Shown here piece after piece: positions 9,442-13,094 of a DNA stretch of 32,000 nt. The notes below the pieces were generated by a model. It was not told the DNA's origin and did not search any database. It saw nothing but the letters and a program-made list of their open reading frames with translations. Each line of letters begins with the position of its first letter. The first letter of the stretch is position 1. Location of the stretch: NCBI GenBank assembly GCA_016699145.1, contig CP064962.1, positions 360,001 to 392,000 on the forward strand, given 5' to 3'. Origin of the DNA: Candidatus Saccharimonadota bacterium. Lineage in GTDB: Bacteria; Patescibacteriota; Gracilibacteria; UBA1369; 2-02-FULL-48-14. The translations under genes and the position numbers were made by a program.

Positions 9442-9516
9442 TCCCCTGTAGCTCAGCGGTAGAGCAAGTGACTGTTAATCACTGGGTCATTGGTTCGAAT
9501 CCAATCGGGGGAGCCA
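9442..9516 (+). tRNA. tRNA-Asn (anticodon GTT), CCA encoded
   Basis: Acceptor TCCCCTG/CGGGGGA, D arm GCTCAGCGGTAGAGC, anticodon stem AGTGA/TCACT with loop CTGTTAA (GTT), T arm TTGGTTCGAATCCAA, then G-CCA. Confidence 0.9.
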
Positions 9517-9572
9517 CATTTGATATATTAAACATTTTATTTTATAATACCAACTTATTACTCTGAGAAACC

Positions 9573-10403
9573 ATGCTATTCTCTGGTGAATTCATTCCAG
9601 AAGATAAAATTGATCCGAGGCCGATTGCCGAGGGAACTCGAGTGCGCGTGCATCGTTTGCAAGGCCACGATGGACTTAATGGACGAATTTTACGAGTTCC
9701 AAGAGATCCTGAACGAGATCATCACGAGACGGTTCAGATGGAACTACTAAAGGGAGGGCCTCTGACAAGTTTTTTGCCTGATCCTGAAACCGTTCGTGCT
9801 AGGATCGGGGATAGAGTAAGGAATTTGGTTACGAGCCTAGAGGTTACTTCCTCTTTGCATCGAGTGGTACCTAGCGCAGAAAGTTTCGCTTATGAACTGC
9901 AAGCCAAGGGGGATATAGACGCTCAGATTCACTACTTGCAACAACTGAGAGGGTTCGTTGATGCTTGTAAGAACACTTACAAGCAGTCCTGTATCCTTCC
10001 CGACTTGATTGGAAGAGGGAATGTTGTTTCTGACTCCAATGGAATTTGGCTGCTCGACTTCAACAACATCTCGGGACAATGGACGGTAGGTCCAGAAATT
10101 CAGGTGCCTTTGGATGATCAAGGTCTACCCATTTTTGACATGGGTTTGCAGTTGCTTCACAGTATTGAGAAAAAGCTACTCACACAGCGTGGAACTAATC
10201 TATCAACCGAAGCCTTCAACAGAAAGTACAGCCAAGAAAGAAGGCCTCAGAGAACCGAGCTTCCAAAAGAACTTCTGGAAACTCTTGTCAGCGCAGACGA
10301 TCTCAAAAAAGATCCATTCTACGGAGCCTTACGCTTTAGAAAACGTAGGCAAAAAGTTCAGTCTATCTTGGATAAGATGATGAGAGACAGGATGGTCCAT
10401 TAA
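9573..10403 (+). CDS. hypothetical protein, possible atypical kinase-like fold
   Basis: 276-aa ORF. ILPDLIGRGNVVSDSNGIWLLDFNNIS resembles a catalytic loop (D..G.GN) plus a DFx metal-binding motif. Weak. Confidence 0.5.
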   Translation: MLFSGEFIPEDKIDPRPIAEGTRVRVHRLQGHDGLNGRILRVPRDPERDHHETVQMELLKGGPLTSFLPDPETVRARIGDRVRNLVTSLEVTSSLHRVVPSAESFAYELQAKGDIDAQIHYLQQLRGFVDACKNTYKQSCILPDLIGRGNVVSDSNGIWLLDFNNISGQWTVGPEIQVPLDDQGLPIFDMGLQLLHSIEKKLLTQRGTNLSTEAFNRKYSQERRPQRTELPKELLETLVSADDLKKDPFYGALRFRKRRQKVQSILDKMMRDRMVH

Positions 10404-10468
10404 CATCTCCTAAAAGAGCAAATACCTGACTGAACAGAAGATTTCCTTTGAGTGCAGCCCAATTCAGA

Positions 10469-10500
10469 GTTCTGAACTTGTCCACAAGGGGGAGCCATTT
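10469..10500 (+). repeat. decayed copy 1 of the tRNA-Asn 3' end
   Basis: GTTCtGAActtgTCCAcaaGGGGGAGCCATTT, compared with tRNA GGTTCGAATCCAATCGGGGGAGCCA. Confidence 0.75.
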
Positions 10501-11121
10501 AGGCTAACTTCTTCACCGTTTCCTCAAGAGCAGCTCGAATCAACTTTTCGAGCAAAGTAGACTCACCTCCATCGGCTGCTGCAAGAGCTTTCACATATTT
10601 GGTTCTACCCACTTTAGTTCCCACTTTCAGCTCAATCGGAGGCAAATTGAGTTTCAACAAAATCATACTGATCAAAAGGCGTCCGATTCGACCATTGTAG
10701 TCAAAAAATGGGTGAATCCATAGAAAACGGTGATGCATCCAAGCTAAAAACTCTACAAGCTCATCCAAAAACTTTTTATCCTCCAAACCAGGCAAAGATT
10801 TAATCCTAATTTTCAAATCTTCGGAAAAATCTTCCATCATCTGGGGAACTTGAAAGAAACGGGGTGGGTTGTGCTTTGAAACGGTCACTTCAATCGTTCT
10901 AAATTTCCCAGCCATGTCAGGGAAATCCATCCAAACCCCACATGATGAACTTCTCTCAAGAAAGCAGGTGTGAAAAGCAACTTGTCCTTAGCTTGAGATT
11001 CCAAAACAAAATCCCAAGCCTTCTTAATTCCTTCAATTTCCAAAGGAATAAGTTTTGATCTTGGAATAATACCAAAAGCCGTCTCTTTATAACTCGTTTC
11101 TCCTTTTCTTTTGCTCTTCAT
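10499..11121 (-). pseudogene. Fic/DOC-family protein (AMPylase-type toxin) split by a frameshift
   Basis: Track ORFs 10885..11121 (...FLREVHHVGFGW) and 10499..10930 (MDFPDMAGKFRT...WIHPFFDYNGRIGRLL) are the two halves of one Fic domain. The span is 623 nt, which is not a multiple of 3. The frames meet near 10925-10940. The Fic motif is HPFFDYNGRIGR, which is the canonical HPFx(D/E)GNGRxxR with G changed to Y. Confidence 0.7.
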
Positions 11122-11297
11122 ACAGAGGGAAACTTACGAAGCACCTGTCTCACCATTCTAAGCGTTGTTTCGGGATTTTCAGTTTTGGTCGTACGATAAA
11201 TCATCTGTTCCTCAAAAGAACTCATGTACTTTGCTCTTTTTTGGGGAGAAGCTTTTTGATACTTCCTGAACGCATTGAGAATGTTTTTGATGGGCAT
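11118..11297 (-). CDS. 59-aa putative Fic antitoxin carrying an inhibitory (S/T)xxxE(G/N) motif
   Basis: Own translation: MPIKNILNAFRKYQKASPQKRAKYMSSFEEQMIYRTTKTENPETTLRMVRQVLRKFPSV. TTKTEN fits [ST]xxxE[GN]. Its TGA overlaps the Fic ATG (ATGA at 11121-11118). It is below the track's 60-aa cutoff. Confidence 0.5.
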   Translation of the reverse strand: MPIKNILNAFRKYQKASPQKRAKYMSSFEEQMIYRTTKTENPETTLRMVRQVLRKFPSV

Positions 11298-11316
11298 ATA
11301 AACTTAGTGTATTTTG

Positions 11317-11357
11317 ATTATAGCAAAATGCAAAATGAACGTCATGCACATTGTGCA
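11317..11357 (-). promoter_or_regulatory. candidate promoter and operator of the Fic module
   Basis: The minus strand reads TGcTATAAT (-10 at 11322-11317), 19 nt before ATG 11297. A 13-nt palindrome TGCACA-T-TGTGCA at 11345-11357 lies just upstream. Confidence 0.35.
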
Positions 11358-11396
11358 CTTCCCCAGAAAAGGGGGTTGGGTTCTTGCTGCACAAAA

Positions 11397-11430: not shown

Positions 11431-11476
11431 TTTTGCAGATTAAAACCGCACCCAGCCAAGTTGGACGATCGAACTT

Positions 11477-12358
11477 CTATTTGAGCAAAGAAGCAAGGTT
11501 TGCAGAAAAAGGACCGTATAACTCCACTCGTGGACCTGCCATCCTATTGAGATAAAAAGTGGCTGCCTCTTTGCTTTCATATCCTTCCTCGGCATAGATG
11601 GAAATGAAATTCACTTCACGGTCTGAGTTTTCTAGGTAGAATCGTTTCGGCTCCCCTTCCTCATTACGGATAAGCACGTAGCCTTCTGGAGCAAGGTTAT
11701 TAGTAATATTTCCTCCAGCTGAATACTCACTTTCGTATTGAATCACTTCGGTGAGAAGAAAATATTCCTCTAGGGTAGAAAATCCCAAATCAAAAACTTC
11801 CGTGTTCAGTTGATTGTCAGAAGAATCGTACGCCGAAACCTCCATCGAATTGAAGAAACTATACAGGTCTTTTTCAAATTGATCCCATGCTTCTACGTAA
11901 TCAAGTCCGAAAACCAAAAAGTACGTTGACTCTCGTATATTCACATAGTAACACCACGCCCCTAATCCACAGGGGAGCTCAAACCATTTCCCAGAAGTGA
12001 GCTCGGGCAAGGCAATAAGTCGCTCTTCGTCGTCATCAGTGATTTCAAGATTACCCTCCACCGCAAGATCCATAATTGACCCTTCTTTTTGATTTTGCAG
12101 CTCTATATCCGCTCCGCCAATGTAAGCCTCTACAGCATTCCAACCTTCGGGCAGAGTGAAGCTGAGTCCCTCAACATTAACAATAGATTCACCTTCTTGA
12201 TTTACAAAAAGTCCCTCTTCATTGACTCTGCCTCGGAGCTCATAATCTTCCTTCACCTCTTCTTCGTAAGGCTCCACCATTTCCTGTTCGTAAGCTTGGC
12301 TACAAGCAGGAAGAATAAGAAAGAACAAAAAGCCGGAAATAAGTTTTGGATGTGACAT
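11477..12358 (-). CDS. hypothetical acidic lipoprotein
   Basis: ORF trimmed to ATG 12358. MSHPKLISGFLFFLILPAC-SQ is a signal peptide plus lipobox, followed by a Glu-rich linker. Confidence 0.6.
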   Translation of the reverse strand: MSHPKLISGFLFFLILPACSQAYEQEMVEPYEEEVKEDYELRGRVNEEGLFVNQEGESIVNVEGLSFTLPEGWNAVEAYIGGADIELQNQKEGSIMDLAVEGNLEITDDDEERLIALPELTSGKWFELPCGLGAWCYYVNIRESTYFLVFGLDYVEAWDQFEKDLYSFFNSMEVSAYDSSDNQLNTEVFDLGFSTLEEYFLLTEVIQYESEYSAGGNITNNLAPEGYVLIRNEEGEPKRFYLENSDREVNFISIYAEEGYESKEAATFYLNRMAGPRVELYGPFSANLASLLK

Positions 12359-12484
12359 AAAATTCAGTGAGTAAAACAAGTATACCCCCATCACGCTCCC
12401 GCCAATAGTGCATTATACCGGCACTTTTAAAAGCTTCCCCATTTCTCAGATTTCGCCATACCATTCAGTTCGCATACTAACCCT

Positions 12485-12739
12485 TTAGTTTTGATGATTA
12501 TCCACATCGAAAACAATCAAATTTCCTTGTCCATCAAAAACACCTAGAGCTCGAAATTGGCGATTGATACGAAAATACCAAATGCCACTTCCCTTTGGGT
12601 TCCTTTCTTTGAAGCGTACTTGGACTGCACTGCCTTCGAGCAGATATCTTTTTGCTTTTTTATACTGTTCAAGAAGCCCCCTCTTTTGCAAGTAGGGTAG
12701 AACGTCCTTTTTTTCAAAAATGTTAGGGACTTCAGGCAT
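12485..12739 (-). CDS. RelE/HigB-superfamily type II toxin
   Basis: 84 aa. The C-terminus GIWYFRINRQFRALGVFDGQGNLIVFDVDNHQ matches the ...yRi...R....d...l.i..i..H pattern. The start lies 3 nt after the antitoxin stop. Confidence 0.6.
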   Translation of the reverse strand: MPEVPNIFEKKDVLPYLQKRGLLEQYKKAKRYLLEGSAVQVRFKERNPKGSGIWYFRINRQFRALGVFDGQGNLIVFDVDNHQN

Positions 12740-12741
12740 AT

Positions 12742-12996
12742 CTACAAATTCAACAGTTCTTCTTTAGGAGTATTCCGAGCCTGTTCTGCCAAAGAAAGCA
12801 TCTCATGGCCCACCTCTTCCTTGGGGAGTTCAATCAAATCGGGTCGAATGAGCATTTCATACTCTTCGACATCAAGAAGCACGGCAATAGGTGCATTATT
12901 GGAAAAAATATATTTTGGCCCTCGCTGAAGACCCTGCAAAGACTCTTTCGTTTTAGTCCTAAGATTCGTCACAGATATAACCTGTTGTCTTAACAT
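12742..12996 (-). CDS. Phd/YefM-family antitoxin
   Basis: MLRQQVISVTNLRTKTKESL...PKYIFSNNAPIAVLLDVEEYEML is the typical Phd/YefM N-terminal pattern. I prefer ATG 12996 over the TTG at 13014. Confidence 0.65.
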   Translation of the reverse strand: MLRQQVISVTNLRTKTKESLQGLQRGPKYIFSNNAPIAVLLDVEEYEMLIRPDLIELPKEEVGHEMLSLAEQARNTPKEELLNL

Positions 12997-13000
12997 AATT

Positions 13001-13018
13001 AAATTTGTTAACAAATTT
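13001..13018 (-). promoter_or_regulatory. 18-bp perfect palindrome, candidate TA operator
   Basis: AAATTTGTTAACAAATTT lies 4 nt upstream of the antitoxin ATG and downstream of a TATAAT (minus strand, about 13028-13033). Confidence 0.45.
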
Positions 13019-13070
13019 GTATATAAATTATATATTAAATATCATACCAATGCAAATAAAGCTCTAATTG

Positions 13071-13094
13071 CTTCCAGCTTGGGGGAGCCATTTT
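13071..13094 (+). repeat. decayed copy 3 of the tRNA-Asn 3' end
   Basis: cTTCCAgcttGGGGGAGCCATTTT, compared with tRNA aATCCAatcGGGGGAGCCA. Confidence 0.7.

Follow-up and report, generated by a model that had tools for sequence, protein, structure and literature searches.

The tRNA-Asn gene in a 32,000-nucleotide stretch of contig CP064962.1 (positions 360,001 to 392,000 of assembly GCA_016699145.1; hereafter the window) is followed by 3.6 kb of small gene modules, each ending in a short repeat shared with the tRNA's 3' end. We conclude that three and perhaps four non-autonomous modules are probably stacked in tandem in this region (9517-13094), where a family of integrative elements inserts at the 3' end of tRNA-Asn by means of a large serine recombinase (LSR). 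An earlier reading made from the letters alone (the sequence-only reading) had traced the repeats to site-specific integration that took place repeatedly at a tRNA 3' end, and had described the modules as remnants or as units mobilised in trans. Our analysis upholds this core idea, with a different recombinase and a different origin of the repeats.

The tRNA-Asn(GTT) gene lies on the + strand at 9442-9516 (ARAGORN and Rfam agree; Rfam score of 70.3 bits). The sequence GGGGAGCCATTT occurs 3' of it as three exact copies, all on the + strand (10489-10500, 11417-11428 and 13082-13093). The chance expectation is 0.25, and three copies were reached in none of 100 dinucleotide shuffles. Hence, the same-strand repeats noticed previously are indeed beyond chance. 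The tRNA itself ends in GGGGAGCCAcATTT, which differs from GGGGAGCCATTT, so the three copies are closer to each other than to the tRNA. The region has the layout of an element integrated in a tRNA gene, with an intact tRNA at one end and a same-orientation repeat of its 3' end closing each unit, where the repeat covers only 9-10 nt of the tRNA. The part of the tRNA from the T loop to the CCA (around 9491-9516, + strand) corresponds to an attB-type left half-site, and its last nine positions are the core, GGGGAGCCA (9508-9516, + strand). This is where the homology between junction partners switches: similarity of the window to a related locus (L039) starts at 9508.

We used the methyltransferase gene upstream of tRNA-Asn (8165-9364) as a query to retrieve related loci, here numbered with the prefix L. 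This gave 12 genome and 11 metagenome loci with 55-75% protein identity, all belonging to Candidatus Peribacteria/Peregrinibacteria. The best relatives in the metagenome scan with this gene had at most 64% identity, and closer ones (85% at the amino acid level) were reached only through homologues of orf276, the 276-aa open reading frame (ORF) of the first module. The conserved block consists of tRNA-Gln, guanylate kinase, SSB, methyltransferase and tRNA-Asn; in the window and in several relatives, an FKBP-type isomerase gene separates guanylate kinase from SSB. Beyond the two tRNAs, the content is almost wholly different between genomes. When counts were pooled over the window and 18 Candidatus Peribacteria loci, the 8-mer GGGAGCCA was found 21 times on the + strand downstream of tRNA-Asn (103 kb), compared with a single occurrence in all the rest, the other strand included (342 kb; Poisson P ~2e-31). 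Within the available sequence, the motif is thus far from being equally dense away from tRNA-Asn. Most relatives with enough sequence have it downstream of this tRNA, and extra same-strand copies are found there in L003 (five), L004 and L010 (two each) and several others (one). In one further relative, L012, the tRNA-Asn gene was missed by ARAGORN: about 505 bp (2370-2873) interrupt it at or just after the anticodon loop, between halves at 2332-2369 and 2874-2914, and this insert holds a group I intron (Rfam RF00028, 53.7 bits for a gathering score of 50).

A plain alignment of the copies with tRNA-Asn reveals the 9-nt core as the only conserved part. Sequence resembling the T arm precedes all three copies (GTTCTGAACTTGTCCACAAGG, GTTCGGATTGCATCAAATACG and GCTCTAATTGCTTCCAGCTTGG), and matches the tRNA only if a 5-nt insertion is permitted. 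The T-arm similarity that had been ascribed to the first two copies is therefore real, but it extends to the third and requires this insertion. We stacked 18 pseudo-sites from the window and its relatives on the core, and found that they form conserved families, for example AAGTTCGGATwGCrTCAAAkACGGGGAGCCA and TAGTTCTAAyTkCCTCCAGTATGGGGAGCCA. In 15 of the 18 pseudo-sites, a GTTC-like motif precedes GGGAGCCA by 17 nt, whereas GTTC precedes it by 12 nt in all 19 real tRNAs. Once a single insertion of 5 nt is permitted, the alignment of the pseudo-sites with the tRNA reads GTTCkAA-(5 nt)-TCCAnnnnGGGGAGCCA. The motif bound by the zinc-ribbon domain of serine integrases is 5 bp nearer the centre in attB than in attP (Rutherford et al., PMC3783163). 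The left half-sites at tRNA-Asn show the same 5-bp offset (17 versus 12 nt), and GTTC may be the zinc-ribbon-domain motif. The sequence left of the core is also well conserved: window 11334-11432 is 92% identical at the nucleotide level to L004 16443-16541, for methyltransferase genes of the two genomes that are about 69% identical.

LSR genes occupy this very site in three relatives. They adjoin the 3' end of tRNA-Asn in L006, L008 and L022, on the opposite strand and with the stop codon inside the tRNA. The LSR of L008 (535 aa) has the domains Resolvase, Recombinase and Zn_ribbon_recom; that of L006 has the same three, its N-terminus being cut by the contig end; and that of L022 (600 aa) has Resolvase and Recombinase, with no zinc ribbon detected. 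A fourth LSR, with Resolvase, Recombinase and zinc-ribbon domains, lies beside tRNA-Gln in L004. These four proteins are mutually only 26-36% identical. In L008 the element is complete: the tRNA is followed by the LSR, 9 kb of cargo and then a pseudo-site at 20770. An integrase next to the tRNA-proximal end is thus present in three relatives and absent from the window, both in 9517-13094 and elsewhere. No tyrosine or serine recombinase was found among the ORFs of the window, where Pfam recognises only DDE and IS200-type (Y1) transposases, at 16-21 kb. This bears out the previous remark that none of these modules encodes a recombinase. As relatives do carry an LSR at the site, we interpret the units of the window as non-autonomous derivatives.

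The C-termini of these enzymes suggest what the arms are. The LSR of L008 ends in ...IPNWLPRLDSNQRPSD, where the final 13 residues correspond to the tRNA read in antisense. We compared the C-termini of the 120 closest homologues of this protein, out of more than 3100 at E <= 1e-20. The tRNA-antisense type, ending W-x4-[DEG][SL][NDE], was found in 35 of the 120. Another 14 end in W-x6-[VITF]R[TNA], with tails of 15-42 residues, and in 35 the stop codon falls at most 4 residues after the W. Many of the remaining ones have the same motifs minus the W. The background of each pattern is one in 869 internal control windows. An example of the attP type is L031, which reads GGTTCGAAC-N12-GGCGGACCA, keeps the 17-nt spacing and has no tRNA within 10 kb. 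We then translated the arms in antisense, taking the reading frame from TGG, which is CCA on the opposite strand. The pattern W-x6-[VITF]R[TNA] appears in 11 of the 18 pseudo-sites, and close variants of it in four more. Examples are WLPLVDKFRT... (first site of the window), WLPVFDAIRTFVQQEPNPLFWGSAQCA followed by a stop codon (second site) and WLPILEEVRTICEEMVE (far end of the L008 element). The 27-codon tail at the second site differs from that of L004 at six codons, all of them synonymous, and the protein is identical. This suggests recent selection as coding sequence. The arms left of the core are therefore displaced LSR tails that double as attP half-sites.

A case from an unrelated lineage (L033, 11560-11640) differs from those above. 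There, an LSR homologue with a tRNA-antisense C-terminus runs into a tRNA 3' fragment of about 40 nt, and ARAGORN finds no full tRNA within 9 kb. Hence, a tRNA-antisense C-terminus is not always the sign of an intact tRNA, and such enzymes may also target displaced tRNA fragments.

The sequence-only reading had taken the repeats for decayed copies of the tRNA 3' end, which implies the classical tRNA islands of tyrosine integrases, where the copies are displaced tRNA fragments. These enzymes typically target tRNA 3' ends, and there is ample precedent for tandem islands that contain partial copies of a tRNA (Islander, PMC4383910; tycheposons). Yet, no Phage_integrase protein was found in about 80 ORFs scanned singly, nor among the 25 commonest families of a batch scan of 133 ORFs from the arrays; the only integrases found are LSRs. 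The arms are also at odds with decay. They match the tRNA only in the core of 9-10 nt, are conserved (up to 92%) with synonymous changes only, have a 5-nt insertion relative to the tRNA that gives them attP-type spacing, and encode a serine-recombinase tail. We regard the tyrosine-integrase model as very improbable, and the sequences left of the core are conserved element arms rather than decaying tRNA ends.

These arms allow the junctions of the window to be described one by one. Pseudo-site 1 (10466-10500, + strand) consists of the left (P) arm AGTTCTGAACTTGTCCACAAGG, the core GGGGAGCCA and TTT; a hidden Markov model (HMM) of the 18 pseudo-sites recovers it with E = 1.9e-6, and its antisense fits the tail pattern. 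At the second site, what we call the A arm (11342-11425, - strand) comprises the displaced 27-codon C-terminal tail and an attP-type left half-site, and ends in the core at 11417-11425; its assignment is based on the similarity to L004 and on a pattern like that of real LSR C-termini. It is followed by the X arm (11426-11490, + strand), a conserved right arm of 60-70 nt with an imperfect palindrome of about 40 bp, a CCAGCCA motif and no stable fold. In the window, in L010 (11344-11400) and in L011 (2256-2310), the X arm contains GGTTAAAAC...CAGCCAArTTGGACGnTCGAAC. It has attB-like proportions and a tRNA-Gln-like CCAGCCA, and may represent a secondary attachment site or else a tRNA fragment displaced long ago. 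Pseudo-site 3 (13056-13094, + strand; left (P) arm AGCTCTAATTGCTTCCAGCTTGG and core; E = 2.6e-5) is more degenerate. One extra G breaks the frame of its tail, GTTC has become GCTC, and the antisense reads WLPQAGSN before a stop codon, or WLPKLEAIRA once a G is removed (partly by eye). The HMM found additional degenerate sites in relatives, and none in the window beyond the three. It missed a possible decayed site without core, AGTTCGCATACTAACCCTTTAG (12464-12484, + strand), which we identified by eye and which would split the lipoprotein gene from the RelE/Phd pair described below. In L008, the homologous pair begins straight after an intact site.

Two relatives show the expected dimensions of whole sites. 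The two ends of a module in L003 (8901-10143) together form an imperfect palindrome of about 49 bp, the size of an attP, and the tRNA of L022 forms with its flank one of about 40 bp, the size of an attB. In L020 (12477-12500) the core is tandemly duplicated (GGGAGCCAGTTTGGGAGCCAGTTT), and after it comes a short piece left over from the 3' end of an LSR gene (LPNW), with stop codons.

The repeats end in CCA, resemble a T arm and are intergenic, and one terminator-like hairpin overlaps site 3. They might thus act at the RNA level or in regulation, as tRNA-like 3' mimics, processing signals or terminators. We give this hardly any credence: Rfam finds the two tRNAs alone, no arm folds better than shuffled sequence (the z-scores are all positive), terminator-like sites are not enriched (3 found for 3.6 expected), substitutions occur codon-wise, and the breakpoints of homology coincide with the core. 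A comparison with integron attC sites was also rejected, since the ORF scans found no tyrosine recombinase and the arms lack a better fold than their shuffled versions.

The comparison of loci reveals that modules were gained, lost and exchanged at the cores. Window 9508-10500 is 86% identical at the nucleotide level, from core to core, to L039 1818-2819 and L040 1527-2528. Left of the first core lies the tRNA in the window and an element arm in L039 and L040. The latter two have an extra recombinase-less module of 1.16 kb (a 397-aa ORF with no domains) between the real tRNA and the kinase-fold unit. This ORF was compared with the one upstream of orf276 in L035, without a match. L039 and L040 are themselves 99.76% identical over 2529 bp and become unrelated right after GCCATTTT of the next site. 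The X arm follows the real tRNA-Asn in L010 and L011, and pseudo-sites in the window, L003 and L007. The breakpoints thus fall at the repeats between the window and L039/L040, between L039 and L040, and between the junction of tRNA and X arm (L010/L011) and that of A arm and X arm (window). This is the presence/absence polymorphism of modules that the sequence-only reading had asked for, here found among relatives.

Some modules recur in several places. Those encoding ParE-type toxin-antitoxin systems (about 0.58 kb) are enclosed by sites, at varied positions, in six loci, and form two sequence groups: L003, L005, L010, L011 and L020 (where the module directly follows the tRNA) on one side, and L004, the window and L037 on the other. 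The RelE/Phd pair is present in two loci. A three-gene module (gene clusters g19-g21) is also present in two, after a pseudo-site in L003 and after the tRNA in L005. The gene of the 276-aa ORF is found deep in an array in L037 and outside any tRNA context in L035. Between genomes, the modules are 81-88% identical, compared with 67-70% for the methyltransferase gene that flanks the tRNA. Tandem units separated by repeats of the target 3' end, some of them without an integration module, occur in the window, L003 (five extra sites), L004, L010 and L037.

We propose the following mechanism. Each copy is the junction at the end of an element. The core GGGG(G)AGCCA would be common to the tRNA (attB) and to the element (attP), with recombination taking place within it. 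The 20-90 nt on its left would be the element's own arm, with a recombinase-binding half-site whose GTTC motif is 5 bp further out than in the tRNA. The arm would double as the final 15-40 codons of the LSR gene carried by the element, since attP would lie inside the 3' end of this gene. Integration would then place the body of the LSR gene beside the tRNA, reading into its antisense strand, and leave the native tail at the far end of the element. The window lacks LSR bodies and retains tails, cores and cargo. Modules without LSR bodies could move only with an LSR supplied in trans. In this account, the data directly show the anatomy of the junctions, the presence of LSR genes at this site in relatives, and modules that come, go and are exchanged exactly at the cores. 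Beyond this, the crossover would lie inside the core, GTTC would be the zinc-ribbon-domain motif, successive insertions would be tRNA-proximal, and the modules may still be mobile.

Several observations weigh against this interpretation. There is no LSR in the 32 kb of the window, the sole part of the 1.34-Mb genome that was searched. Canonical LSRs recombine attP with attB only (PMC3783163), and this directionality leaves serial insertion at an occupied tRNA, i.e. at a hybrid attL, unexplained; the LSRs of staphylococcal cassette chromosomes (SCC) are a precedent for tandem arrays. We sought the mirrored GTTC motif in all right arms, and it is missing from most, L003 and L022 being the two clear symmetric cases. 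Searches for a free or circular attP, made by scanning viral contigs with A-type and B-type arms, gave nothing or chance matches without the core. The sites at tRNA-Gln have a T-loop-like motif (GTACTAGAC) in register with the tRNA, with no 5-bp shift. The polymorphism was observed between the loci of relatives, none of which are from the same species. Finally, the six mismatches between L039 and L040 are all within the last 45 nt of the arm, which suggests that homologous exchange within the conserved arms may also swap modules.

The last point could be taken further. The junctions may be genuine products of LSRs and the modules dead remnants of separate full elements, in an inert graveyard where differences between genomes arise by homologous recombination between arms and not through mobilisation in trans. 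The mismatches that cluster inside the arm instead of stopping at the core would fit such a history, as would the directionality that opposes insertion into an occupied site, the frameshift in the Fic gene described below, the broken frame and GCTC of the third tail, and the probable core-less site at 12464-12484. On the other hand, the small recombinase-less units (0.58-1.2 kb) have clean core-to-core edges in several genomes and contexts, and their identity exceeds that of the flanking methyltransferase gene. The graveyard would also require that many independent modules each lost precisely the whole LSR body as far as the core, which is unlikely by random deletion. We thus find the graveyard an unlikely account of the array, and prefer non-autonomous modules stacked at an LSR attachment site.

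Module 1 of the window (9517-10497, + strand) has a predicted promoter TTGATA-17-TATAAT (9520-9548; 11/12 in the promoter scan), the 276-aa ORF (9573-10403) and a left (P) arm. The protein has no match to sequence families, and its AlphaFold model (pLDDT 84, pTM 0.83) matches protein-kinase folds (Foldseek E ~2e-6, TM 0.41-0.48), in agreement with its previous description as a kinase-like orphan, in so far as the fold is predicted. Several modules open right after the core with a near-consensus promoter of the sigma-70 type (TTGAyA, 17-18 nt, TATAAT), as seen at window 9520-9548, L003 3228-3262 and L004 16540-16570. Hence, the recurrent TTTGAC/TTGGAC to the right of the core may be a -35 box and not a contact of the recombinase.

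The next unit had been described as a Fic toxin with a small antitoxin. The toxin gene of the Fic/Doc family (10499-11121, - strand) is confirmed by Pfam (Fic, E = 1e-13), although one frameshift splits it into 10499-10930 and 10885-11121; in the three-frame translation the frame switches at ...HHVGFG / WMDFPDMAGKFRT. The 59-aa ORF upstream (11118-11297, - strand) has no family match and is a putative antitoxin by position only. It is followed by the gene of the acidic lipoprotein (11477-12358, - strand), whose 305-aa translation is indeed acidic and has a lipobox (LPAC); this orphan cargo has no homologue in the related loci and no family support. The pair that had been labelled Phd/RelE (12485-13014, - strand) encodes a RelE-like protein of 84 aa and a Phd-like protein of 90 aa, and is similar (84% nucleotide, 89% amino acid identity; window 12491-12863) to L008 20783-21155, beside a pseudo-site. 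The Phd part of the label has a weak Pfam match (E = 8e-6, below the curated cut-off), whereas the 84-aa protein matches no family. The cargo of the tRNA-Asn element of L008 includes a Schlafen/AlbA_2 domain, an HNH endonuclease and a zeta toxin.

A parallel array is found at tRNA-Gln(CTG), as previously suggested. It extends over 2190-4539 on the - strand (tRNA at 4465-4539), with four pseudo-sites that start at 3604, 2930, 2517 and 2190, the last being degenerate. They read TGGCTGGCnnnnCGGrTCTAGTAC on the + strand, with the antisense W-L-A-x-R-[V/I]-stop, and two of them are identical to sites in L009. In relatives, the arrays at tRNA-Gln (L001 5400-6275; L004 1438-2232) contain a SMODS nucleotidyltransferase and a Cap4-like nuclease, which are genes of the type of the cyclic oligonucleotide-based antiphage signalling system (CBASS).

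On the side of tRNA-Asn, the variable region does not end at 13094, contrary to what the sequence-only reading had implied. Array modules (ParE, 17074-17650; NYN, 21452-21952) and copies of insertion sequences (IS) run to about 22 kb. The ParE-type module (17074-17650, + strand) is 77% identical at the nucleotide level to L004 16551-17080 and L037 8111-8641, both flanked by sites. In the window its neighbour is an IS (rve transposase, 16043-17095) and sites are missing on both sides, while in relatives it is a site-bounded array module. Further downstream, the only similarity to a relative is weak (44% over 45 residues, to L004, at about 26.4 kb). Two pairs of repeats in the window are 100% identical (836-1374 and 19351-19890; 18581-19272 and 20030-20720). 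There is an IS200-type copy (Y1 transposase) on either side of the conserved core block, and two IS5-like copies (split DUF4096 and DDE ORFs) flank one IS200 copy. The occurrences of GGGAGCCA at 18962 and 20411 lie within IS copies and are unrelated to att sites. At the far end, a 701-aa ORF (29881-31986, - strand) includes a series of tandem repeats (30585-31865; three to five units of about 390 nt, with 66-72% mutual identity), and is homologous (blastp cluster) to the adjacent 460-aa SLH-domain protein (28435-29817).

Bacteria of the candidate phyla radiation have tiny genomes. The locus analysed here shows a specific and recurrent route of gene flux in the Peribacteria lineage. A conserved core is bordered by two tRNA genes, and a hypervariable stack of small modules starts at each of them. 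The cargo of these stacks comprises toxin-antitoxin pairs, a kinase-fold protein, lipoproteins and, in relatives, defence genes; serine recombinases service both stacks. A study of 2016 on five complete genomes of Peribacteria never uses the words integrase, recombinase, transposase, mobile or toxin. The tails could also allow a diagnosis from sequence, where a tRNA-antisense tail would indicate the integrated state and a W-x6-VRT tail the attP state. They could help to locate the attachment sites of thousands of uncharacterised serine integrases, which are sought as genome-engineering tools. It is conceivable, if rather doubtful, that these arrays are the visible part of a widespread and undescribed system: an LSR family (more than 3100 homologues at E <= 1e-20, in the candidate phyla radiation and other phyla) that has its attP in the 3' end of its own gene, swaps its C-terminal tail upon integration, and services integron-like stacks of recombinase-less cassettes with their own promoters at tRNA genes. 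If so, replacing the native tail by one encoded on the antisense strand of the tRNA, upon integration there, could provide an intrinsic switch between free and integrated states.

In the literature searched, we found no description of the following features: the tRNA targets, the tiny single-operon modules, the candidate-phylum host, the attP in the 3' end of the recombinase gene and the alternative C-termini that result from it. The locus resembles several known systems in part. Like chromosomal integron arrays, it has small, often single-gene modules, rich in toxin-antitoxin systems, each ending in a recombination site and stacked at a fixed primary site. Unlike them, it has no IntI or folded attC-type site, its modules have their own predicted promoters, and the primary site is the 3' end of a tRNA. 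It shares with the tRNA-anchored accretion driven by tyrosine integrases (Islander-type islands, cis-mobilisable elements (CIMEs) and tycheposons) the intact tRNA at one end, the partial repeats, newer elements that push older ones outward, and the degenerate remnants. The differences are that the repeats derive from the tRNA for only 9-10 nt, that the recombinase is a serine recombinase and that the arm is the coding tail of this recombinase. A large serine recombinase is present in 27 of 937 tycheposons.

SCC and SCCmec elements at rlmH (orfX) also involve insertion by an LSR at the 3' end of a conserved gene, and form tandem arrays with short direct repeats. Elements of this class without ccr genes may be mobilised in trans. 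However, the target of SCC is protein-coding, it uses two recombinases (CcrA and CcrB) or CcrC, and its cassettes have tens of kb. The att site of SCC is not known to lie inside the recombinase gene. The LSR of L008 is only distantly similar to the models of CcrB and CcrC, well below their cut-offs.

The homology with CcrB and the features common to SCC and the Dehalococcoides ssrA islands have been discussed (PMC3146451). In the latter (DsiB integrase; McMurdie et al. 2011, PMC3146451), the 3' end of the target is directly adjoined, on the reverse strand, by the gene of a CcrB-like serine recombinase (about 540 aa). The islands are in tandem, split by 20-bp direct repeats of this 3' end, and 15 of 31 have no integration module and were proposed to be cis-mobilisable elements (PMC3146451). 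Beside the LSR of L008 we found neither a second small serine recombinase (DsiA/CcrA) nor a conserved six-gene integration module, and the four adjacent ORFs have no recombinase domains. The target is tRNA-Asn or tRNA-Gln instead of the transfer-messenger RNA (tmRNA), the core has 9-10 bp instead of 20 bp, the modules are much shorter, some consisting of just one toxin-antitoxin pair (0.58 kb), and the host belongs to the candidate phyla radiation. The LSR on the reverse strand at the 3' end of the target, here seen in relatives, and the tandem recombinase-less units are common to both. Hence, the Dehalococcoides ssrA islands are the closest described system, within a wider class that includes SCC composite islands and tRNA-anchored accretion.

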